Assembly: GCA_022709525.1 (NCBI GenBank)
Contig: JAKLIQ010000002.1
Location: 128,984-192,983 of the forward strand
Length of the DNA stretch: 64,000 bases
Source: Candidatus Omnitrophota bacterium
GTDB taxonomy: Bacteria > Omnitrophota > Omnitrophia > Omnitrophales > Aquincolibacteriaceae
Direction: 5' to 3'
The translations under genes were made by a program, and so were the position numbers. Shown here piece after piece: positions 15,166 through 61,426 of this stretch (positions within the stretch are counted from its first letter, which is position 1; each line of letters opens with the position of its first letter). Below the pieces are notes generated by a model, which was not told the DNA's origin, searched no databases, and saw nothing but the letters and a program-made list of their open reading frames with translations.

Positions 15166-16311
15166 ATGCAGATCTTGGCAACAGCGATCACGGGTTTACT
15201 TTTTTTCCTTCTGGCGGGATGGATCTACCGCAGCGGACGGGCGCTCTCCGAACTCAAACAGGCCCCCGCGTTAAAATTGAAATTGCCGGTATCCCGCACC
15301 GGAAGAGTTTCTGTCCTGATCCCGGCGAAAAATGAAGAAAAAAATATCGCGGATTGCGTCCGGCCTTTTCTCTCCCAGCTGCACGAGGGCGATGAGATCC
15401 TCGTGATCAATAACTACTCGGAAGACAGGACGGAAACGATCCTCCGGGAACTTGGCGCCGATGAGATCCTGCCCGACGGTTCCGGACGGAATTTAAAATT
15501 CCGCTACCTTAACACCCCCCAAACCCCTGAAGGATGGACCGGCAAGAATTTTGCGCTCCATCTCGGAACCCAGTGCGCCTCGGGCGACTGGTTTTTTTTC
15601 ACCGACGCCGACACCCGCCATGAACCCGGAAGCGTTGATACCGCTCTCGCGTTCGCGGAAGCCCGTCAGCTCGATCTTTTGACGCTCTTGCCGCGCTGCA
15701 TCACGGGAAGTTTCTGGGAAGATGTGATCCAACCTTGCGCGATGGGCTATATGGGGCTCTGGTTCCCGATCCGCAAGGTCAATGACCCCGCATCCAAAGC
15801 GTATTTCGGGAACGGACAATACCTGCTCATCCGCGCGGACCATTACCGAAAGATCGGCGGGCATGCCGCGGTCAAGGACGCTTTTCTTGAAGATTTTGCG
15901 CTCATGAAAAAAACGAAGGAGACCGGGGCGTGGGGCATGTGCGCATTCGGCATGGAGATCTACGGCACACGCATGTACGATTCTTTTGATGCCCTTTGGC
16001 GCGGCTGGCGCCGCATCTTTCTGCATGCGTTCGAGCAAAAACCGTGGCCCATCCTGCGACGCGCGCTAAGCGTTTTTTTGTTTTCGCTTTTTCCCGCGTT
16101 AGCCCTGCTCACCCTGCCGCACGGCCTTTCGCTTTCGCTTTGCCTTTTGATCCTTGCGATCGTTTTCGCAACAGCCGCCAAAACGCACGCGATCGTCAAA
16201 GCCAAGAAACGCTACGCGCTCCTTCACCCACTGGCGGCGCTCGTCTTCACGGGGATCCTTCTCGACGCTTTCCGCATGGCCATTCTCAAGCACCCGACCC
16301 GCTGGCGTTAA
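15166..16311 (+). CDS. Family 2 glycosyltransferase (membrane-anchored, GT-A fold)
   Basis: An N-terminal TM helix is followed by motifs VLIPAKNEE and DADT and a C-terminal polytopic region. The gene converges on the lipid operon. Confidence 0.7.
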   Translation: MQILATAITGLLFFLLAGWIYRSGRALSELKQAPALKLKLPVSRTGRVSVLIPAKNEEKNIADCVRPFLSQLHEGDEILVINNYSEDRTETILRELGADEILPDGSGRNLKFRYLNTPQTPEGWTGKNFALHLGTQCASGDWFFFTDADTRHEPGSVDTALAFAEARQLDLLTLLPRCITGSFWEDVIQPCAMGYMGLWFPIRKVNDPASKAYFGNGQYLLIRADHYRKIGGHAAVKDAFLEDFALMKKTKETGAWGMCAFGMEIYGTRMYDSFDALWRGWRRIFLHAFEQKPWPILRRALSVFLFSLFPALALLTLPHGLSLSLCLLILAIVFATAAKTHAIVKAKKRYALLHPLAALVFTGILLDAFRMAILKHPTRWR

Positions 16312-16725: not shown

Positions 16726-17823
16726 TCAGATCGCCAGGTAACCGACTTTTACGGCATAACGGACAAGGGTCTTGAGGAACGCATCATCCGTTTTCGGCAT
16801 GGAGATCCCGGTCCCGCGCAGGATCTCGCGGGTGTTCGTCGTGTCAAAAGTCAGCTGTCCGTTCAAATAACCCAGATAGGGCTCCATCATCGAAAAAACC
16901 ATCTGCTCCTGCGGGTTCATTTTACTCTTGGAAAAATGTTTGGGATCGATGACCTCGATCGGAGGAACGGCCGAATAATCTTCTTTTCCCATTTTCAGGA
17001 GCATCCCGATCGAAGGCGGTTTTGGCGCCACAACGTGGAAGGCTTTGTTGACGCTCCGAGGGTCTTTTACGATCGCACAAGTGGCCTTGATCACGAAATC
17101 GATGGGAACGATGTTGAAGGTGTTCTCGGGATGGGTCGGGATCTTCGAGAGAACCCCGTGCGCGAAGAGTTTGATAAAAGGGTAGATGACATTGAATTCC
17201 GAGACCTCGCCGGTCTCGGAATGGCCGACCACGATGCTGGGCCGGATGATCGTGACCGGAAGACCTTTCGCCATCGCTTCGCGCACTTTGGTCTCGGCCT
17301 TATACTTACTTGACTCGTAATAATTCGCGAAAACAGGTTTGGCAGGCAGCTCATCTTCCTTGGAGCAATGATCCCAGACGCTACCGGCTACGAAGGCCGT
17401 GCTGAAATAAATAAAACGCTCGAGCTTTCCCTTCTTTTTGAGGTCCCAGGCGAGTTCCAGCGCGTGCTCGGTACCGCCCACATTGATCTGCTGGCACTCT
17501 TTTTCCGTCCCGTTCAAGGCAGTCAACGCGGCGATGTGATAAAAAGTCTTGCATTCGTGCTCGAGGTATTCTAGATCAGCTTTCTTGATACCGAATTTAT
17601 GATGCGTGACATCGCCTTCGATCACATGAATGCGGGATCCAAGATGAGAATCAAGACCGATCGAGGTGAGGATCTTTTCGACGCGCTCCTTGTGGGTCAT
17701 CCGGTTCTTGGCGCGCGCCAGAACAGCGATCTCGACGTCAGTGGTCTTGAGGAGTTCCTTGACGAGCTCCTGCCCTAAGACGCCGGTCGCGCCGGTCATA
17801 AAGATCAAATTACGTGCCATCAT
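16726..17823 (-). CDS. Thioester reductase / fatty acyl reductase-type SDR (NAD_binding_4, male-sterility family)
   Basis: The nucleotide-binding motif FMTGATGVLG and catalytic motif YYESSKYKAE (YxxxK) are present. The gene overlaps the KS gene by 14 nt. Confidence 0.75.
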   Translation of the reverse strand: MMARNLIFMTGATGVLGQELVKELLKTTDVEIAVLARAKNRMTHKERVEKILTSIGLDSHLGSRIHVIEGDVTHHKFGIKKADLEYLEHECKTFYHIAALTALNGTEKECQQINVGGTEHALELAWDLKKKGKLERFIYFSTAFVAGSVWDHCSKEDELPAKPVFANYYESSKYKAETKVREAMAKGLPVTIIRPSIVVGHSETGEVSEFNVIYPFIKLFAHGVLSKIPTHPENTFNIVPIDFVIKATCAIVKDPRSVNKAFHVVAPKPPSIGMLLKMGKEDYSAVPPIEVIDPKHFSKSKMNPQEQMVFSMMEPYLGYLNGQLTFDTTNTREILRGTGISMPKTDDAFLKTLVRYAVKVGYLAI

Positions 17824-19111
17824 ATCTCCTTAAAGCCAAACAAATATTCTGCCCGCCGAAGCCGAAGGAATTTGACAATGCTATCTGAACATTGGACCGT
17901 CTTGCCGTGTTCGGCACATAGTCCAGATCGCATTCGGGATCCGGTTCCTCATAATTGATCGTCGGCGGGATGATCGAATCGCGCATCGACAGAAAACAAA
18001 TGATCGCTTCCACAACGCCGGCGGCGGCGATCATGTGCCCGAGCATGGATTTCGTCGAACTGACGGGCACCTTGCGGGCATATTCCCCCATGACTTTTTT
18101 GATCGCGAGGGTCTCCAGGGAATCGTTCACCGCCGTGGAAGTTCCGTGAGCATTGATATAATCAATATTTTGCGGGCCGATGCAAGCTTTTTCCATCGCG
18201 ATCTCGATCGCGCGGGCCGCTCCCCGGACCTCTGGGTCCATATCCGTAAGCCGGTAGGCATCGGCGGTCGAGCCGTAACCGACGATCTCGCCGTGGATCG
18301 CGGCATGGCGTTTTCGCGCATGCTCCAGTTCTTCCAGGATCAAAGCTCCGGCGCCTTCGGAGATCACGAAACCGTCCCTTTTTTTATCGAATGGCCGCGA
18401 AGCCTTCTCGGGTTCATGGTTCCTCGTCGAGATCGCGGTCAAAAGACTGAATCCCGCAACCCCCATCGGATAGATCATGGAATGAGAACCACCGGTCATG
18501 ACAATATCCGCGTCCCCGCGGCGGATCCACTCGAAGGCCTCCCCGATCGCTTGAGAAGACGCGGCACAGGCGGTAAGGCAATTGGAAACGGGGCCCCGGA
18601 TATCAAAAAGCCGCGTCAGATGGGTCACGGTCATGAAGGGCTGGCTTTCCAATTCCCGGAGCGCGCTCATGTTCCGGAGCGCGCCCTCCACATACCGGGC
18701 CTTATCCACGATCTCGGTGGCGCCTTCGGTAAAAGAGGGTACCAGGGTCTTGATGAACGGATCAAAATCGATCCCGCTGTCACCCGCCCCAAAATAGATC
18801 CCGAAGCGGTTCGGATTGAGCGAGAGGGGCTCGAGCATGGCGTTCTTATACGCTTCGGCCGCGGCCTGCAGCGCGAAAAAAGTACTGCGGCCGGCGCAGC
18901 CAAGCGGCGGATTCCGCTCAAGCCATTTTTCGAATGAGAATCCTTTGACTTCGCCCGCAATGCGCGTCGGAAAACGGCTCGCGTCAAAAAGCGTGATGGG
19001 GCCGATCCCCGACTTGCCTTGCGTCAAGCGGAGCCAGGTATCCCGCACGGAATTCCCGAGAGGCGTCACAGCGCCCATACCGGTCACAACCACTCTGCGT
19101 TCTTTTAACAT
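17810..19111 (-). CDS. Beta-ketoacyl-ACP synthase (KS-alpha, FabF/type II PKS-like, catalytically intact)
   Basis: The catalytic cysteine motif TACAASSQAIGE and the histidine motifs NAHGTSTAVND and SMLGHMIAAAG are all present. Confidence 0.9.
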   Translation of the reverse strand: MLKERRVVVTGMGAVTPLGNSVRDTWLRLTQGKSGIGPITLFDASRFPTRIAGEVKGFSFEKWLERNPPLGCAGRSTFFALQAAAEAYKNAMLEPLSLNPNRFGIYFGAGDSGIDFDPFIKTLVPSFTEGATEIVDKARYVEGALRNMSALRELESQPFMTVTHLTRLFDIRGPVSNCLTACAASSQAIGEAFEWIRRGDADIVMTGGSHSMIYPMGVAGFSLLTAISTRNHEPEKASRPFDKKRDGFVISEGAGALILEELEHARKRHAAIHGEIVGYGSTADAYRLTDMDPEVRGAARAIEIAMEKACIGPQNIDYINAHGTSTAVNDSLETLAIKKVMGEYARKVPVSSTKSMLGHMIAAAGVVEAIICFLSMRDSIIPPTINYEEPDPECDLDYVPNTARRSNVQIALSNSFGFGGQNICLALRRYDGT

Positions 19112-20388
19112 TTTTTGAACACCAAGGATGCGTTTTGGCCGCCGAAGCCGAACGTGTTGAGCAGCGCTATTTTGACATCGCAGGACTTTGCCTTATCTTT
19201 GACAAAAGGCAGCGGGCACTCGGGATCCGGGTCTTTAAGATTGGTCACGGGCGGGATCTGCCCTTTTTTCGTCGCGAGAACCGTGATCACGGCTTCCGCG
19301 CTACCCGTACCGTAAACCAAATTCCCCGTCACCGGCTTTACTGCCGTCACATGAAGCTTTTTAAAACTCGAAGAATAAAACGAGTGGACCGCAAGCGATT
19401 CCTGGACGTCTTCCTGCGGAATGCCGCTCCCGTTCGCCATCAAAAGATCCACGTCGGACGGCTCAAGCGCGGCGTCCTCAAGGGCCCTGCGGATCGCGAC
19501 GCGCTTACCCGCAAAGTCATCGGGGTCGCGCGGATCATAATTAAAATCCGAAGAAGACCCGTAACCCGCGACCTCCGCATAGACCGAAGCCCCCCGTTTT
19601 TTTGCGCTCTCCAGTGATTCCAGGACAAGGATGCCGGCGCCTTCGCCCAAAACGATCCCGTCGTGTTTTCGATCGAACGGCGTATAGGCTTTTTCAGGCG
19701 ACGTTTCTTTGGCGGAAAGAAACCCGAGGAGTTGAAAGCGGGAAACGCCCATGGCGTTCAATTTAGAATCCGTACCGCCGGCCAGCATGATATCGGCGTC
19801 ACCGCGTTCGATCACGCGGTACGCTTCCCCGATCGCCTGAGTCGCCGCGGCCGAAGAGGTCGTGATCGTATTATTGGGGCCGCGCAGCTGATTGGCCACG
19901 GAAATATGACAAGCTGGCATGTTCGGAAGATACTTCAGGAACCATAGCGGAAAAAGCGACCGGATCCCGTCTTGGCCGAACTTGGTCATGGAAAAATGCC
20001 CGTTCTCGTCCAGTCCGTTCCGAAATCCCACTCCCACTTCATCGAGATCGTTATTGATGATACCGGTGCCGAGGATCACGCCGATGCGGGTTGGATCGTA
20101 ATTTTCTTTGGAAAGTTTCGCGTCCCTAAGCGCCAGACAGCTCGCCGACACCGCCATTTGGATCTCGCGCGACATCAATTTGATGGACTTGCGGTTCTCG
20201 ATGAATTGCTTAGGATCGAATTGCGGGAGCATCCCCGCGTATTTGAAGGAAGGTCCCATCCGAAGCGGCTCGGCGCTGCGAACAGCGGAACGGCCGTGAA
20301 CGGCGGCATCCCAATAAGGTTCCCAACCGATCCCGCAGGCGGTAATGACGCCGAATCCCGTGACGACAACGCGACGCTTGGAGGTCAT
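19105..20388 (-). CDS. KS-beta / chain-length-factor-like ketosynthase paralog (catalytic Cys and both His replaced)
   Basis: The protein has a KS fold, but the active-site motifs are altered. TTSSAAATQAIGE carries Cys to Ser, LMANGSGIPQ carries His to Asn, and VTGNLVYGTGSAE carries His to Asn. It overlaps the KS-alpha gene by 7 nt. Confidence 0.8.
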   Translation of the reverse strand: MTSKRRVVVTGFGVITACGIGWEPYWDAAVHGRSAVRSAEPLRMGPSFKYAGMLPQFDPKQFIENRKSIKLMSREIQMAVSASCLALRDAKLSKENYDPTRIGVILGTGIINNDLDEVGVGFRNGLDENGHFSMTKFGQDGIRSLFPLWFLKYLPNMPACHISVANQLRGPNNTITTSSAAATQAIGEAYRVIERGDADIMLAGGTDSKLNAMGVSRFQLLGFLSAKETSPEKAYTPFDRKHDGIVLGEGAGILVLESLESAKKRGASVYAEVAGYGSSSDFNYDPRDPDDFAGKRVAIRRALEDAALEPSDVDLLMANGSGIPQEDVQESLAVHSFYSSSFKKLHVTAVKPVTGNLVYGTGSAEAVITVLATKKGQIPPVTNLKDPDPECPLPFVKDKAKSCDVKIALLNTFGFGGQNASLVFKKC

Positions 20389-20822
20389 GAGGATTGAACG
20401 ACCTTTTCGCGGACTTTGAAATGATCCATGAAAGCGTCATGAAAGGTAACGGATTTTTTTTGCGAAGAAGAGAGCCCGTCGACGGCCATTAAAAGAAGTT
20501 TTGCGCGCGCCACCGGGCCTTCCGAACAAGTAATCGTGGCTTCAAGCCATCCGCCTTCAGACCCGAGACTTTCCGACCACGCCTCAACCTGAAGAGGTGT
20601 TCCGGGCTTTGGAACGCTCGTCACGGTAGCGCTTTCGATCTTGGCGAAGATGAGATCTTTTTGATAGTCGCTTTCCGCGCCGACCAAAAGCCCGCCCGTT
20701 TGGGCCATCATTTCGATGAAAAGGACCTCCGAGCTGTAGGGGGCCTGCGGGACTTTAGAGGATGCGGTCGCCTTTTTGCCGCGCTGGATCGAATGGACTT
20801 TTTCAAGAAGAAGCCAGCGCAT
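20385..20822 (-). CDS. Hotdog-fold FabZ/FabA-like protein lacking the catalytic His (probable non-catalytic dehydratase partner)
   Basis: A helix motif EMMAQTGGLLVG is present. There is no HxxGxP His motif. Confidence 0.5.
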   Translation of the reverse strand: MRWLLLEKVHSIQRGKKATASSKVPQAPYSSEVLFIEMMAQTGGLLVGAESDYQKDLIFAKIESATVTSVPKPGTPLQVEAWSESLGSEGGWLEATITCSEGPVARAKLLLMAVDGLSSSQKKSVTFHDAFMDHFKVREKVVQSS

Positions 20823-20823
20823 A

Positions 20824-21207
20824 TCATCTCCAGATCATGGCCTGCGCGCCGACAAGATCGCCGCTCCGGAAAAAGTGCCCTTCGCCGCGATAAAACTTCC
20901 GCGTCCGGCCTGCGCGCCATTCCATTTCAAAATGATCCCCCGCGCGCTTCTTGATCCTCATCCCCTGGAAACCTTCGAGGCCCATCCAGGATTCCCCGCA
21001 AGCCTTAAAGAACGCCTCCTTAGCCGTAAAAAGTTCCGCGAATTCCTGGAGTGAAAGTCGCTTGAACGAACGGCGCTCGGAGGGATTGAGGAAGCGTTCG
21101 CGAACATAGTCTTTATGCCGGGAAAGAAACTCTTTAACGCGGCCGCGGGATATGAGATCGACGCCGACGCCGCGAAGCGCGGTGGTTTTTTGTTTTACGA
21201 GCAGCAT
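20824..21207 (-). CDS. AcpS-type 4'-phosphopantetheinyl transferase (cluster-associated second copy)
   Basis: A 127-aa protein with motifs GVGVDLI and FTAKEAFFKA. The canonical acpS is at 59996..60376. Confidence 0.7.
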   Translation of the reverse strand: MLLVKQKTTALRGVGVDLISRGRVKEFLSRHKDYVRERFLNPSERRSFKRLSLQEFAELFTAKEAFFKACGESWMGLEGFQGMRIKKRAGDHFEMEWRAGRTRKFYRGEGHFFRSGDLVGAQAMIWR

Positions 21208-21608
21208 TTATCGGAGCAGGAATTCTTGCCCAAGCGGTCGGTCAGATAACGGAGAAGCATCTTGACCGTGAAACAATCGGCCAGCTTTGTGATCTGAGGG
21301 TCTTTTTTGAATTCATCAAGCTCAAGATAAGGAAGTTTTGTCCGAAGCTCCGTGAGGCCCTCAGCTGTAACCACGCCCTCTTTGACGAAACGTTCGTCAT
21401 TGAGGAGATGGCTCGGGAAGAGATCGCCGGCCGGGATCTTGAGATCGAAGGCCTTTTCGAGACGAAAGACGATGTCGATAAAATCAATGGATTCGGCCCC
21501 CAGATCCCGCTTCAGGGAAGCTTCCGGGGTGACCTCGGATTCATCGACGCCGAGCGCTCCGGCGAGTGTTTGCTGCACTTTCGCAAAAAGTTCTTTCTCC
21601 ATGATCAT
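21195..21608 (-). CDS. Acyl carrier protein with ~55-aa C-terminal extension ending in Cys-rich CSDKCCS
   Basis: The phosphopantetheine attachment motif DLGAESIDFID is present. A good SD (AGGAAGGA) lies upstream. Confidence 0.75.
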   Translation of the reverse strand: MIMEKELFAKVQQTLAGALGVDESEVTPEASLKRDLGAESIDFIDIVFRLEKAFDLKIPAGDLFPSHLLNDERFVKEGVVTAEGLTELRTKLPYLELDEFKKDPQITKLADCFTVKMLLRYLTDRLGKNSCSDKCCS

Positions 21609-21630: not shown

Positions 21631-22038
21631 CTATGACAATGGTGATGGCTGAGGATTTTTAACTTTGGCCAGCGTCAGTTTGGCCGACACGGCAACTTCG
21701 CCGTGATAATACAACTTTGCGTCCCAGGTCGTCTCTGCGTCCGTTCCCTGCACAAGCGTCAGGCGGCTTTCCCAATCATCGCCCGGCCTGAGGTATTTCG
21801 TGAACCGGGTGGCCCGTATTTGTTTTAAGAAATAATGCTGCCCTGCACCGCCCTTTAAGGAATCCAAATAACGTTCGGCGGTCTGTTTCAGCATTTCAAG
21901 CGCCAGAACTCCCGGCAGCACCGGAAATCCCGGAAAATGATCTTGGAAGAACTCCGAGTCTTCGGGGATGCGGCCGCAAGCCGTGATCCCCTCACCTTCC
22001 TTGGCCCAAAGTACCTTCTCGATCGCGAGTTTTGTCAT
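21631..22038 (-). CDS. FabZ-like beta-hydroxyacyl-ACP dehydratase (hotdog, catalytic His present)
   Basis: The active-site motif reads FFQDHFPGFPVLPGVLALEML. Confidence 0.8.
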   Translation of the reverse strand: MTKLAIEKVLWAKEGEGITACGRIPEDSEFFQDHFPGFPVLPGVLALEMLKQTAERYLDSLKGGAGQHYFLKQIRATRFTKYLRPGDDWESRLTLVQGTDAETTWDAKLYYHGEVAVSAKLTLAKVKNPQPSPLS

Positions 22039-22042
22039 GATC

Positions 22043-22723
22043 TCATTTTTTCTCTAGCACATAGACCCCGTTCAAAATGCGAAATCCGGCAAGCCAGGTA
22101 TAAAAATTTTTAAAGGAAGCCACTTTAAAACCTGCCGTCCCAAAAAACCCCCTCCACGCTTCATCCGTGCGAAATTGATGCGGATGAGACATGAACTCCA
22201 CGTTCAAGAGCCGGTCCCGGACGATCGTCCAGAACCGCCCGAGCGCATGATGATAAAGGTCCTCAACGACAATGACTTTGCTGCGCGTTACCCGGCGCAC
22301 TTCTTTAAAAAGCGCTTCCGGGTCCGGGACATGATGAAGCATCGTCACAAGGATCGTCACATCAAAACTTTGATCCGGGAACGGGATCCGGGATCCGTCA
22401 TAGAGCATGACCGGGACTTTTTGATACCCGGGTTTTACCACATCCAGCACCAAGGACTCATGTCCGCGCTTGCGTAACGGCTCGGCATAAAACCCCCAGC
22501 CCCCGCCCAAATCCAAAATGCGGGAACCCGGAGAAAACTCTTTCTCAAAAAACCGTACGATATTTTCGGCGCGCGCCTCAAGGGCGCGATGGACAAAACG
22601 GCTTACAATCCCATCCAGCGCCAGGCGCTGGAAACCTTGCAGGCTTTTTTTGATTGAGTTCACGATGCTGGTCGTTCTGTTTTTGAGCGGAGAATTATAG
22701 CATAGGGCGTCTTTTTGCCCCAA
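22043..22723 (-). CDS. Class I SAM-dependent methyltransferase
   Basis: Motif I reads ILDLGGGWG. An acidic residue follows the beta2 strand (VLDVV). Confidence 0.7.
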   Translation of the reverse strand: MGQKDALCYNSPLKNRTTSIVNSIKKSLQGFQRLALDGIVSRFVHRALEARAENIVRFFEKEFSPGSRILDLGGGWGFYAEPLRKRGHESLVLDVVKPGYQKVPVMLYDGSRIPFPDQSFDVTILVTMLHHVPDPEALFKEVRRVTRSKVIVVEDLYHHALGRFWTIVRDRLLNVEFMSHPHQFRTDEAWRGFFGTAGFKVASFKNFYTWLAGFRILNGVYVLEKK

Positions 22724-22842
22724 GAATCTTTTTTGATGCCAACCTCCGTCCCCGGTTTATCCTTTTTCCTTCCGATTTCATTTGATATCTGCTATCTTAC
22801 CCACCATCCTGGCTTTTGTTTTCATATCATTAATGGCTGCCA

Positions 22843-22889
22843 GGATGACCCCAATTTCAACTTCATTAAAATTGAAAGGTATTGGGACC
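22843..22889 (+). promoter_or_regulatory. Copy C of a conserved ~48-nt element ending exactly at the fabL-like ATG
   Basis: Read as GGATGACCCCAATTTCAACTTCATTAAAATTGAAAGGTATTGGGACC, followed directly by ATG. See findings for the three-copy comparison. Confidence 0.6.
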
Positions 22890-23648
22890 ATGACGAATCC
22901 GCTGAAAGGCAAAGTCGCTCTCATTACAGGGGCTTCCCGGGGCATCGGACGAGCCATCGCCCACCGCTTGGCCGAAGACGGTGTTCATATTGCGGTCAAT
23001 TATCTTCAGAATGAAGCGGCCGCGAAAAAGACCGTTGAAGAGCTCCAGGCCAAGGGCGTCAAAGCCGAGGCCTTCCAGGCGAATGTCGGTGATCTCGATA
23101 CTCACAATCCCCTGCTTGAAAATGTCCTCAAAACCTTCGGAACGCTGGATATCCTGATCCACAACGCGGCGCTCGGCGCTTTCAAGCCTGTTCATCGCCT
23201 TAAGATGAACCAGTGGGATCTTTCCATGGATATCAACGCTAAAGCGTTCCTGGCGCTTACTCAAAAAGCGCTTCCGATCATGGAAGCGAAAAAGGAAGGC
23301 ATCATCATCGCTCTCTCAAGTCTGGGCGCGCACCATTTTATCCCCAACTACGGTGCTATCGGGATCTCCAAAGCCGCGATCGAAACCACGGTCCGCTATC
23401 TCGGCGTGGAATTAATGCCGAAGGGCATCAGGGTGAACGCGGTTTCAGGCGGGCTCGTCGATACGGATGCGTTGAAATCATTCCCGTTTTTTGACGCTTT
23501 TAAGGAAGAGGTTTTAAAGCGGACTCCCGCCGGAAGGATCGGAAAACCCGAGGATATGGCCCGCGTGGTCGCGTTCCTTTGCTCCCCGGAATCGTCCTGG
23601 ATCGTCGGCCAAACCCTCATCGCCGACGGCGGACTTTCCCTCATCTAA
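22890..23648 (+). CDS. fabL: FabL/FabI-type enoyl-ACP reductase (SDR with Y-x6-K)
   Basis: The nucleotide-binding motif GASRGIGRA is present. IPNYGAIGISKAAIETTVRYLG resembles FabI [22 protein letters not shown]. The start was chosen at the ATG that has the conserved upstream element. Confidence 0.75.
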   Translation: MTNPLKGKVALITGASRGIGRAIAHRLAEDGVHIAVNYLQNEAAAKKTVEELQAKGVKAEAFQANVGDLDTHNPLLENVLKTFGTLDILIHNAALGAFKPVHRLKMNQWDLSMDINAKAFLALTQKALPIMEAKKEGIIIALSSLGAHHFIPNYGAIGISKAAIETTVRYLGVELMPKGIRVNAVSGGLVDTDALKSFPFFDAFKEEVLKRTPAGRIGKPEDMARVVAFLCSPESSWIVGQTLIADGGLSLI

Positions 23649-59198: not shown

Positions 59199-59972
59199 TT
59201 AACGCAAACACCCAAAGTGCGTCAATCTGATCCCGAGATGGTCGATGTACTTGCGGAGCTCTTTTAAGCTGAAAAGCTGATATTCCCTCTCGCGAGGGAT
59301 CGTGAGCGAACTGATCTCGCAAAGCTCATCATCCACCCACCCGGGATGGCACATGATCTCGCTGGTGCCTTCCGGCAACGTAAAGAGAAGATGCCGCAAC
59401 ACTTCTTCCGTCCAAAAAGTATGGGGATCGATGTTCCTGTAGAAATGGTCGGTCGTTTTAAGATTCTTGTGAATATTTTTAACGTCCGGTTCGGTAAGAA
59501 GACGGGTCCAGCGGATGGGCAGCTTGTTCTTTTTAGCGATCAAGGCGAGCGCCTCGAGAAAAGGCCGGTAATCATGCATGTGGTGGTGAACGTCCACATG
59601 GGTTGGCAACCGTTTGAAAATCTTCACGAATTTTTGGAGTTGGGCTTTAAATTCCTCGGCGATCTCGGAAATGGGCGGTAATCTTTTAGCGGAGTACTGG
59701 TCTTTTTTCTTGAAACGCCCGTCTTTTTGAAGAAGGGACTTCACCAGCGACGGCTTCGCCACGGGTTTTCCAAGCGTCACGTTCAGATGAAGCCCGATGC
59801 CAAGCTTTTTCCGGGATAAAAGTTCGCCCACCACGTCGGATTCGACCGGAAGATTGACCAGGAAAGTCGTGCTGGTCACAATGCCATTCTCATGCGACTT
59901 GAGAATGGCCTCCGTGACCCGGGAAGTTAAATTGCAATCATCCGCGTTGACGATCAGCGTTCGTTGTTTCAT
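59199..59972 (-). CDS. YdjC/ChbG/HpnK-family carbohydrate deacetylase
   Basis: The product begins MKQRTLIVNADDCNL. Confidence 0.7.
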   Translation of the reverse strand: MKQRTLIVNADDCNLTSRVTEAILKSHENGIVTSTTFLVNLPVESDVVGELLSRKKLGIGLHLNVTLGKPVAKPSLVKSLLQKDGRFKKKDQYSAKRLPPISEIAEEFKAQLQKFVKIFKRLPTHVDVHHHMHDYRPFLEALALIAKKNKLPIRWTRLLTEPDVKNIHKNLKTTDHFYRNIDPHTFWTEEVLRHLLFTLPEGTSEIMCHPGWVDDELCEISSLTIPREREYQLFSLKELRKYIDHLGIRLTHFGCLR

Positions 59973-59995: not shown

Positions 59996-60376
59996 TTATG
60001 GGATAACGATCACCACAGTCGCGATGGCGTATTCCCGTTCATGCGCGACTGATAACTCGACCTGGGACTTTGCCGGAAGACGCAATCGCTTCCGGCTTTC
60101 CGCATCCAGCGCGATATAGGGCTTCCCCGTCGCCTCGCGCCGGACCTCGATCCCCGAAAGTCTTTGCCCCTGTTTCGGGCGTATTTTAAGAGCTTTCAGG
60201 ACGGCTTCTTTGGCCGCGAAACGCGCCGCATAATGCTCGAATTTCATGCGCTTCGAACCGCAGTAATCCTGTTCCGCCGCGCTAAAGACACGCTGAAGGA
60301 ACTTGTTGCCAGACCTCGCGATCATCTCTTCCATCCGCCGGACCTTGACGAGGTCGATACCCTGAAGGATCTTCAC
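59996..60376 (-). CDS. acpS: Holo-ACP synthase (housekeeping AcpS)
   Basis: Motifs GIDLVKV and FAAKEAVLKAL are present in a 126-aa product. Confidence 0.8.
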   Translation of the reverse strand: MKILQGIDLVKVRRMEEMIARSGNKFLQRVFSAAEQDYCGSKRMKFEHYAARFAAKEAVLKALKIRPKQGQRLSGIEVRREATGKPYIALDAESRKRLRLPAKSQVELSVAHEREYAIATVVIVIP

Positions 60377-60388
60377 AAAACGGCCACT

Positions 60389-60763: not shown

Positions 60764-61297
60764 TTAAACGCGAGCACGCTCCTGCTGGATCCACTGGTCG
60801 ATCTCGGACTTGGTAAAGACCCAGTGGCCGCTTTCAAAACGGGCCGGGATCTTTTTTGCATTGGCCCATTCTTCGACGACGCGCGCTTCAACCTCCAGGT
60901 ACTGCGCCACATCCTTAAGCGTCAGGAACACGTCGGGCCCCTCGGAAGCGCTTACGCCTTGCATGGTCACAAGCCCTTGAAGCATGGCGCCATCCCCCAC
61001 GCTCAAACGCGGCGTCGTAAGATTCCCTTTAAGAGTCGCGGTCCCTAGGATCGACAGACTGCGCGATGCCACAACATCCCCGGAGACTTTGCCTGCGATC
61101 ACAATGCTATCGCCGTGGATATTCGCCGTAACCTTGGCGTTCTCCCCGATCGTAAGATTGCCGCGCGTGTCGAGCTTGCCTTCGAAGCTTCCGTTAATGC
61201 GCAAATTGACGGGATCCTTGAACGAAATGGTCCCTTGCATGCTTGCGTCAACGTCGAGAATCTTTTCCTGGATATCTTCCTTTTTCTTATTGGCCAT
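60764..61297 (-). CDS. Bactofilin-domain protein fused to a C-terminal excisionase/MerR-type HTH
   Basis: Beta-helical bactofilin repeats (IxGxVxGD-like) are followed by LTLKDVAQYLEVEARVVEEWANAKKIPA. The start was set at the ATG that has the SD AAAGGAGA 8 nt upstream. Confidence 0.6.
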   Translation of the reverse strand: MANKKKEDIQEKILDVDASMQGTISFKDPVNLRINGSFEGKLDTRGNLTIGENAKVTANIHGDSIVIAGKVSGDVVASRSLSILGTATLKGNLTTPRLSVGDGAMLQGLVTMQGVSASEGPDVFLTLKDVAQYLEVEARVVEEWANAKKIPARFESGHWVFTKSEIDQWIQQERARV

Positions 61298-61334
61298 GGT
61301 CGCTCTCCTTTGGAGGCATTGTGGGATAAAAAAC

Positions 61335-61384
61335 TTAGTCCCAATTCCTATCAATTTCAGAGAATCTGAAATTGGGGCAATCCT
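61335..61384 (-). promoter_or_regulatory. Copy A of the conserved ~48-nt element in the 5' leader of the bactofilin-HTH gene
   Basis: The minus strand reads AAGGATTGCCCCAATTTCAGATTCTCTGAAATTGATAGGAATTGGGACTAAG. Confidence 0.6.
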
Positions 61385-61426
61385 TGTCAACCATTCGAGA
61401 AAAAAATACCAGACAAGGATGATTCA

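Follow-up and report, generated by a model that had tools for sequence, protein, structure and literature searches.

What is the role of a ketosynthase that has lost all three of its catalytic residues and is encoded directly upstream of an intact paralog? The question is raised by a 64,000-nt stretch of contig JAKLIQ010000002.1 of a Candidatus Omnitrophota bacterium (the window), in which two overlapping genes, here called KSb and KSa, encode a degenerate and an intact FabF-type ketosynthase (KS), respectively. KSb represents a distinct, uncharacterised lineage of a known component type, the silent ketosynthase partner, and stands in a conserved operon. We consider it likely that it is the silent subunit of a heterodimeric KSa/KSb ketosynthase working in a dedicated acyl carrier protein (ACP) system, where it would shape the acyl tunnel of its partner, and that the finished chain is released reductively. 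The features at the centre of this reading are:

19105..20388, (-) strand: KSb, 427 aa, ATG start, full-length FabF fold with Ser179/Asn319/Asn356 in place of Cys/His/His; proposed non-catalytic subunit
19852..19854, (-) strand: Ser179 codon TCG at the nucleophile position, second S of TTSSAAAT, placed by alignments to FabF and KSa
19432..19434, (-) strand: Asn319 codon at the position of the first catalytic His, within MANGSG, placed by alignments to FabF and KSa
19321..19323, (-) strand: Asn356 codon at the position of the second catalytic His, within TGNLVYG; His in most orthologues
17810..19111, (-) strand: KSa, intact FabF-type ketosynthase, C182/H322/H359/K354; proposed catalytic partner
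19105..19111, (-) strand: overlap of the KSb stop and the KSa start, ATGTTAA, 7 nt, read from the sequence

KSb keeps the FabF fold and lacks the catalytic triad

KSb contains both ketosynthase Pfam domains (PF00109, 5.2e-39; PF02801, 1.9e-20), and its catalytic columns were set by three independent alignments, i.e., HMMER against 1j3n, HMMER against the E. coli FabF entries, and BLASTP against KSa. All three place Ser179, Asn319, and Asn356 at the positions of the catalytic Cys and the two His. The original prediction, aligned by eye, had read exactly these exchanges and named mis-registration as the error that could undo them; the register is certain because the flanking motifs QAIGE, GDAD, VKP, and FGFGGQN align gap-free, and KSb has no Cys-His-His triad. 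The KSb peptide quoted in that prediction exceeds its KS counterpart by one residue. KSb also retains K351, the active-site Lys, together with the FGFGG loop.

The closest characterised relative of KSb is the FabF of T. thermophilus (1j3n, 279 bits), with the FabF proteins of E. coli and B. subtilis at ~262-266 bits. Lower scores were obtained with the actinorhodin KS (187 bits), chain 9s5h_C (167 bits), and the actinorhodin chain-length factor (CLF; 1tqy_B, 150 bits); the CLF, 9s5h_C, and Iga12 were compared with KSb by bit score. Against the canonical FabF model TIGR03150, KSb reaches 354 bits, below the cut-off of 493.75, and with its triad absent it is not a canonical FabF. The AlphaFold2 model, built from 58 sequences, is confident outside the region named below, with a pLDDT of 88.3 and a pTM of 0.87. 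Foldseek places B. subtilis FabF (4ls8/4ls5, TM 0.87-0.90) at the top, and all top 50 matches are KAS II enzymes of the fatty acid synthase (FAS) type, i.e., bacterial FabF and mitochondrial homologues. The low-confidence part of the model, residues ~111-160, is the helix-loop-helix (HLH). The HLH loop has an insertion of ~14 or more residues in both KSb and KSa relative to canonical FabF; in KSb it lies within residues ~110-135 (window ~19984-20061), where the model confidence is lowest.

KSa shares 34% identity with KSb (BLASTP, E=1e-86) and retains the C/H/H/K set in all related loci that contain the complete gene. No other KS gene was found in the 64-kb window. In transcription order KSb lies upstream and KSa downstream. 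The 7-nt overlap between them, from which a 1:1 stoichiometry had been predicted, is real; it shows compact operon packing, and the stoichiometry does not follow from it.

An invariant motif in the helix-loop-helix and swapped conservation

The 120 closest homologues of KSb (56-90% identity) come nearly all from metagenome-assembled genomes of Candidatus Omnitrophota, and a scan of species-representative genomes yielded at least 566 confirmed matches. The locus analysis covered the best 80 of these (L001-L080), and the KS pair is absent from 21 of the 80. In the 58 clustered loci, KSa is adjacent to or overlaps KSb, the exception being L033, where the contig ends inside KSb. The overlap of the KSb stop with the KSa start amounts to 4, 7, or 8 nt in many related loci.

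The family is defined by a motif within the HLH:

19906..19950, (-) strand: codons of P147-H161, PLWFLKYLPNMPACH, the clade-defining motif in the HLH, including Lys152 and Cys160-His161

This 15-residue motif, PLWxLKYLPNMPACH, is invariant in 79/79 KSb proteins, among them the one whose triad is intact and the solo paralogs of Planctomycetota; in the four solo loci inspected for it (L059, L066, L069, and L072) it reads PLWxLK(Y/Q)LPNMPACH and is strictly or nearly conserved. It aligns to P131-H145 of E. coli FabF (counted back from C163), i.e., to the second helix of the HLH, and in FabF structures this element contributes F133' and V134' to the acyl pocket of the partner subunit. The HLH mediates dimerisation and covers the substrate site (bioRxiv 10.64898/2026.05.19.726425). 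In the PDB, the motif segment found no chain at E<=10 beyond weak matches to FabF and mitochondrial KAS, and this search thus returned no solved structure for any member of the KSb clade. A 42-aa motif query against an index of 5.8 billion proteins gave two fragments only and was uninformative.

Column entropy, computed over the 49 loci holding both genes, shows that the two paralogs are conserved in opposite places. KSb is on average the less conserved protein (mean 1.44 vs 1.04 bits in KSa), and its triad columns vary at 1.6-1.8 bits vs 0 bits in KSa. Residues 136-165 are the stretch that KSb conserves best, and they rank among the least conserved of KSa: the values are 0.83 vs 2.35 bits for residues 136-150 and 0.24 vs 1.25 bits for residues 151-165. 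The 58-sequence alignment of KSb has 84 invariant columns.

Within the motif, all 79 KSb proteins have Lys at column 152 and all 53 KSa proteins have Glu, compared with Ser or Met in the three canonical FabF proteins aligned. The second helix of the HLH carries a charge of +1.43 in KSb vs +0.26 in KSa, and helix 205-224 a charge of +0.97 vs +0.02. Cys160 (codon 19909-19911) is invariant in 79/79 KSb, while canonical FabF proteins have Gly or Ala and KSa has Thr or other residues at this position. His161 (codon 19906-19908) is likewise invariant in KSb; it is also found in 52/53 KSa and in the FabF of E. coli and T. thermophilus, and B. subtilis FabF has Gln.

Comparison with known silent partners

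A characterised analogue exists in anammox bacteria, where Cluster I encodes the triad-less FabF paralog amxFabFmut just upstream of the intact amxFabF2 (KustE3606/3605; bioRxiv 10.64898/2026.05.19.726425). The two proteins co-purify and are active solely in combination, and HLH residues of amxFabFmut line the tunnel of amxFabF2 and alter its chain preference (bioRxiv 10.64898/2026.05.19.726425). The amxFabFmut protein is the positively charged subunit, its HLH is disordered without the partner, and it is inactive when isolated; the S. brodae protein was crystallised as a homodimer (bioRxiv 10.64898/2026.05.19.726425).

The likeness to KSa/KSb is extensive: a full-length FabF-fold paralog that has lost the triad and immediately precedes an intact FabF paralog, a cluster with its own ACP and a FabZ-like dehydratase, B. 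subtilis FabF as the nearest structure in both cases, a silent subunit that is more positive on the HLH and the contact helix, and an origin within the PVC superphylum. As far as sequence can tell, all anammox features that are checkable in this way are mirrored in KSa/KSb. The differences lie in the substituted residues, which are Val/Thr and Asn/Glu/Cys in anammox and Ser/Asn/Asn in KSb, and in the companion genes. The anammox cluster has a B12-radical S-adenosylmethionine (SAM) protein and a phytoene-desaturase homologue, both absent from the window's cluster and from the three divergent loci examined, whereas the KSb cluster has a thioester reductase, a GT2 glycosyltransferase, a methyltransferase, a phosphopantetheinyl transferase (PPTase), a ketoreductase (KR), and a second hotdog protein. 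The structures 9s5h and 9s5i are probably those of the anammox preprint; this is our own assignment, and a literature search for the entry 9s5h gave unrelated papers. KSb scores 167 bits to 9s5h_C vs 279 bits to FabF, and the KSb motif was undetected in 9s5h_C. With this lower score, the motif undetected in PDB chains, and other companion genes, sequence comparison does not establish orthology of KSb and amxFabFmut. PDB searches with the cluster's ACP and its two dehydratases likewise showed no special affinity to the amxACP or amxFabZ structures.

The actinorhodin CLF (ActB, PDB 1tqy_B) is, like KSb, a KS-fold paralog without the nucleophilic Cys that is encoded beside an active KS. It is an obligate heterodimer partner that shapes the tunnel, and it is credited with malonyl decarboxylation for priming. 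Bisang et al. are said to have described in 1999 that CLFs of this type carry Gln at the Cys position. KSb differs in having Ser there and neither His, and in scoring 150 bits to 1tqy_B vs 279 bits to FabF; its cluster also puts the silent copy first and encodes a reducing system without cyclases or aromatases. The absent Gln, the closer FabF score, and the FAS-type Foldseek matches set KSb apart from the actinorhodin-type CLFs.

In pathway logic the operon is probably nearest to the KS/CLF systems of highly reducing type II polyketide synthases (PKSs), i.e., Iga11/Iga12 of ishigamide biosynthesis (PDB 6kxd) and ApeO/ApeC of aryl polyene biosynthesis, which likewise combine a KS and a silent partner with a KR, a dehydratase pair, and a dedicated ACP and without an enoyl reductase. 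The KSb cluster differs in that it lacks aryl-starter genes, a third KS of the ApeR type, and export genes of the Lol type, and the scores to Iga11 (KSb 184 bits, KSa 218 bits) are below the respective FabF scores. ApeC is about half a KS in size and corresponds to one thiolase half (PMC8358021), so that the ApeO/ApeC model was rejected for KSb with its 427 aa and both PF00109 and PF02801.

Of the original prediction, the reading of KSb as a non-condensing partner of KSa gains good support from the genomic context, the conservation pattern, and the anammox analogue, whereas KSb does not resemble the actinorhodin CLF or ApeC, which it had named for comparison. Nor is the substitution pattern diagnostic of a KS-beta/CLF, as had been stated: CLFs have Gln, and the KSb family has S, A, T, V, G, D, E, or C.

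Rattray et al. (2009) listed degenerate FabF paralogs in Kuenenia and Rhodopirellula baltica, the latter being RB3714 with Asp163 and RB4527 with Glu163/His/Lys/Asn, catalogued without an assigned function (PMC2649909). These R. baltica paralogs appear to be without an adjacent KS partner, and their patterns (E/H/N/K and D/H/..) recur in solo KSb proteins of Planctomycetota carrying the motif; from the residue pattern, and not from its sequence, we infer that RB4527 belongs to the KSb clade. The rhizobial cluster for very-long-chain fatty acids, acpXL-fabZXL-fabF2XL-fabF1XL, has its own ACP, a FabZ, and two FabF paralogs side by side, arranged as in the present operon. Both FabF1XL and FabF2XL are required, and the product, a saturated C28 hydroxy acid, is moved by LpxXL to lipid A. 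With NF005076 (PRK06501) KSa reaches 358 bits, and NF005084 (PRK06519) gives 80 bits with KSb vs 34 bits with KSa; these models presumably stand for the XL proteins. As a precedent for a silent partner the rhizobial pair was dropped, since the papers give no active-site or oligomer data. The Omnitrophota literature found on polyketide, ladderane, or fatty-acid genes mentions only automated antiSMASH 'ladderane' calls of unknown function.

KSb as the proposed partner of KSa

In the proposed mechanism, KSa would carry out acyl transfer, decarboxylation of malonyl-ACP, and Claisen condensation, while KSb, with the thiolase fold kept, would place its HLH motif at the dimer interface to cap and shape the acyl tunnel of KSa, and thereby set the substrate or chain-length preference. 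The Lys of KSb and the Glu of KSa at column 152 could form a pair that favours the heterodimer over the two homodimers. If the analogy with amxFabFhet extends to priming, KSa may also prime itself from malonyl-ACP, which would explain the absent FabH.

Several observations weigh against this proposal. The charge asymmetry between KSb and KSa over the whole interface is modest, the Lys/Glu column alone giving a clear signal. Chain-length control by KSb is argued by analogy. A purely structural role leaves the invariant Cys160-His161 unexplained, and the intact triad of the KSb protein in L038 implies that some members of the family may be catalytic. The solo KSb proteins of Planctomycetota have no other KS gene within 8 kb, so that an adjacent partner is perhaps not always needed. 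Finally, the operon contains no enoyl reductase, FabD, or FabH.

These solo members of the clade occur in loci L059-L080 (e.g., L069:7980-9266) and have Glu or Asp at the Cys position, or Gly in two loci. The L069 gene adjoins secA, as does the cluster in the window.

In a rival reading, KSb acts independently of KSa, either as a homodimeric scaffold or regulator that binds lipid or ACP, or as an enzyme built on Cys160-His161. The invariance of both residues in 79/79 proteins, solo paralogs included, is in line with this, as is the homodimer of S. brodae amxFabFmut in the crystal (bioRxiv 10.64898/2026.05.19.726425). However, KSa follows KSb throughout the 58 clustered loci, with the one contig-end exception, and the Lys/Glu reciprocity at column 152, together with the swapped conservation pattern, indicates an interface with KSa. 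His161 is shared with KSa and with two of the three FabF proteins, so that only the Cys is new, and the isolated anammox mutant subunit is inactive with its HLH disordered (bioRxiv 10.64898/2026.05.19.726425). An independent role is therefore unlikely.

A related view is that the KSb clade is a distinct, motif-defined family with a gained function, in which Cys160-His161 would sense the acyl chain or form a reactive or ligand-binding site at a new location. It would explain why the motif is perfect in L038 with its intact triad and in the solo members, and why the old active site drifts freely; we nevertheless regard it as improbable.

The operon and its product

The genes that surround the KSa/KSb pair form a tightly packed operon on the (-) strand, in the order methyltransferase, DH1, ACP, PPTase, DH2, KSb, KSa, and thioester reductase, with two syntenic genes on its flanks:

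22043..22723, (-) strand: class I SAM methyltransferase, first gene of the operon
21631..22038, (-) strand: DH1, FabZ-like dehydratase, His of HFPGxPxxPG and catalytic Glu intact
21195..21608, (-) strand: dedicated ACP, 137 aa, with a C-terminal extension
20824..21207, (-) strand: dedicated AcpS-type PPTase, divergent; TIGR00516 34.7 bits, under the acpS cut-off
20385..20822, (-) strand: DH2, divergent FabZ-like hotdog protein with Lys at the catalytic His position and Glu kept; its TGA overlaps the ATG of KSb (ATGA)
16726..17823, (-) strand: stand-alone thioester reductase (PF07993, TIGR01746-like), last gene of the operon; predicted reductive release
22782..23648, (+) strand: FabG-like short-chain dehydrogenase/reductase, the KR, divergent to the operon; syntenic in related loci
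15166..16311, (+) strand: GT2 glycosyltransferase, HpnB/CruG-like, convergent to the operon; syntenic in related loci
59999..60388, (-) strand: canonical AcpS; TIGR00516 88 bits, over the cut-off

The full arrangement, i.e., Lnt, divergent KR, the eight-gene operon, and convergent glycosyltransferase, is found in the Omnitrophota loci L001-L037. The core DH1-(KR)-ACP-(PPTase)-DH2-KSb-KSa recurs in about 25 more divergent loci, some of which are labelled Planctomycetia. Genes with housekeeping functions, Lnt, SecA, PrfB, AsnRS, and aldolases, flank the operon in the window.

The 64-kb window encodes two AcpS-type PPTases, a divergent one in the operon and a distant canonical one. Since a canonical AcpS is encoded elsewhere in the window, the PPTase and ACP of the operon constitute a second, dedicated carrier system. 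The fold of the cluster ACP matches only residues ~3-70, and the remaining extension of ~65 residues has no family match; orthologues in L043, L038, and L056 are similarly long (128-133 aa).

DH1 and DH2 are a second pair of an intact and a degenerate paralog in the same operon. In related loci the His column of DH2 is occupied by H in 16, K in 15, R in 11, and N in 4 proteins, and DH1 keeps His/Glu in 44/47, which suggests, as judged from these residues, a possible heterodimeric dehydratase with one active site. No correlation was seen across the related loci between the loss of the His in DH2 and that of the triad in KSb.

In the proposed pathway, the KR and DH1/DH2 would process the beta-carbon after each condensation by KSa/KSb, and the chain may stay unsaturated, as no enoyl reductase is encoded, unless a housekeeping enoyl reductase acts in trans. 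The thioester reductase would release an aldehyde or alcohol, which the GT2 enzyme and the methyltransferase would then decorate. The product we infer is probably a specialised lipid or a polyene-like alcohol glycoside, glycosylated and methylated.

These FAS-II-type parts (ACP, AcpS-type PPTase, and FabZ-, FabG-, and FabF-like proteins) could also be taken to mean that KSa/KSb is the housekeeping ketosynthase for fatty-acid elongation, the more so as relatives are very widespread in Omnitrophota genomes (at least 566 matches, the KS pair being absent from 21 of the best 80) and the window holds no other KS. However, the canonical AcpS implies a second, standard ACP system, the terminal thioester reductase and the ties to GT2 and methyltransferase do not fit such a role, the operon lacks enoyl reductase, FabD, and FabH, and the 137-aa ACP is atypical. 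We see little likelihood of a housekeeping function.

Drift of the catalytic columns

The substituted residues of KSb are not fixed in the family. In the 120 close homologues, S occupies the nucleophile column in 103, A in 15, and T and C in one each, the first His column N in 117 and Y in 3, and the second His column H in 89, N in 30, and D in one. The resulting triad states are SNH (71), SNN (29), ANH (14), SYH (2), and TNN, SND, AYH, and CNH (1 each), and among these homologues loss of the whole triad is confined to the subclade of the window's KSb. The fetched loci extend the series with CHH (L038), CHY (L039), SHH (L032, L034-36), SNH, ANH, SNN/TNN in the same subclade, ASF/ACF/AAF/VCF, and forms containing E or D. 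Of the 150 nearest representatives from a library of 1.84 billion proteins, 87 have a single domain, and in these the nucleophile column contains S, A, G, D, E, F, N, R, and C. Gln never occurs at this column in the 120 homologues, the 79 locus copies, or the 87 single-domain library representatives.

A neighbour-joining tree of 53 KSa, 79 KSb, and three canonical FabF proteins splits off every group in 50/50 bootstraps, although the root of such a three-group tree cannot be placed. The clean split of KSa, KSb, and FabF therefore indicates one old duplication, with the active site lost stepwise inside the KSb clade. The proteins L038:6622-7914 (C/H/H) and L039:339-1631 (C/H/Y) keep the full motif and have an intact KSa downstream; judging from their residues, they may represent extant intermediates with two catalytic subunits.

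Ser predominates at the Cys position (103/120), and the question arises whether KSb is still an enzyme, either with Ser179 as the nucleophile of a DpsC-like acyltransferase or priming reaction, or in the manner of KSQ/CLF, as a malonyl-ACP decarboxylase or chain initiation factor. A Ser-His dyad would be conceivable in most orthologues, where the second His persists (SNH). KSb has also kept Lys351 and the FGFGG loop, and Cys-to-Ser mutants of ketosynthases keep some function (Rattray 2009, PMC2649909). However, orthologues from the same operon have Ala (15/120), Thr, Val, Gly, Asp, or Glu at the nucleophile column, and since Ala, Val, or Gly suffices there, Ser is no essential nucleophile. KSb has neither His, both of which are needed for decarboxylation in the established FabF mechanism. 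The family never shows Gln, the hallmark of KSQ, and is therefore not of the Gln-bearing KSQ/CLF type, and the triad columns are among the most variable of KSb. A catalytic role of KSb is thus very unlikely.

That KSb is merely a decaying, functionless duplicate, as the loss of its whole triad and its faster evolution relative to KSa might suggest, is hardly credible given an open reading frame that remains intact (427-430 aa) in over 100 homologues with identities as low as 56%, and also in remoter loci, 84 invariant columns in 58 sequences with a 15-residue invariant motif, and strictly maintained synteny and gene overlap.

Implications and related arrangements

Silent ketosynthase partners decide which chain a type II synthase makes, and until the preprint on anammox ladderane genes appeared in 2026, only polyketide pathways were believed to use them. 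KSb belongs to a separate FabF-derived silent-partner lineage that is common in Omnitrophota and Planctomycetota, recognisable by its motif and by a Lys/Glu reciprocity through which heterodimer specificity could be encoded. The natural series of orthologues with the active site intact, partly lost, and fully lost offers a test of the change from a catalytic homodimer to a catalytic/structural heterodimer. The gene content of the operon points to a reduced lipid, undescribed so far and probably glycosylated, from a phylum whose members are uncultured and ultra-small.

The genes around the KS pair vary between lineages. KSa is followed by an alpha/beta-hydrolase instead of the thioester reductase in L038 (9203-10159) and L056 (7441-8403), and L043 (4706-5473, 10544-12647) contains a hexapeptide (LpxA/D-like) transferase, a HAD hydrolase, and a class III aminotransferase. 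This suggests that one chain-building module leads to different end products in different lineages.

Near the canonical acpS in the window lie a gene resembling HpnK and chitin-disaccharide deacetylase and a gene for an excisionase/MADS1-type helix-turn-helix protein (59199-59972 (-) and 60764-61390 (-)). The GT2 gene (HpnB) and the deacetylase-like gene (HpnK) give weak, below-cut-off matches to hopanoid models; no search was aimed at hopanoid synthesis genes.

Proteins of 750-930 aa that fuse two KS domains (P0126, P0130, P0135, P0143, and others) were considered as Rosetta-stone evidence and dropped, as they are not orthologous to the KSa/KSb pair: in 20/24 a KSa-like half comes first and is followed by a generic degenerate second half, and in 4/24 a truncated KS-like N-terminal part precedes a KSa-like domain. 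Covalent fusions of an active and a silent KS are common in metagenomes.

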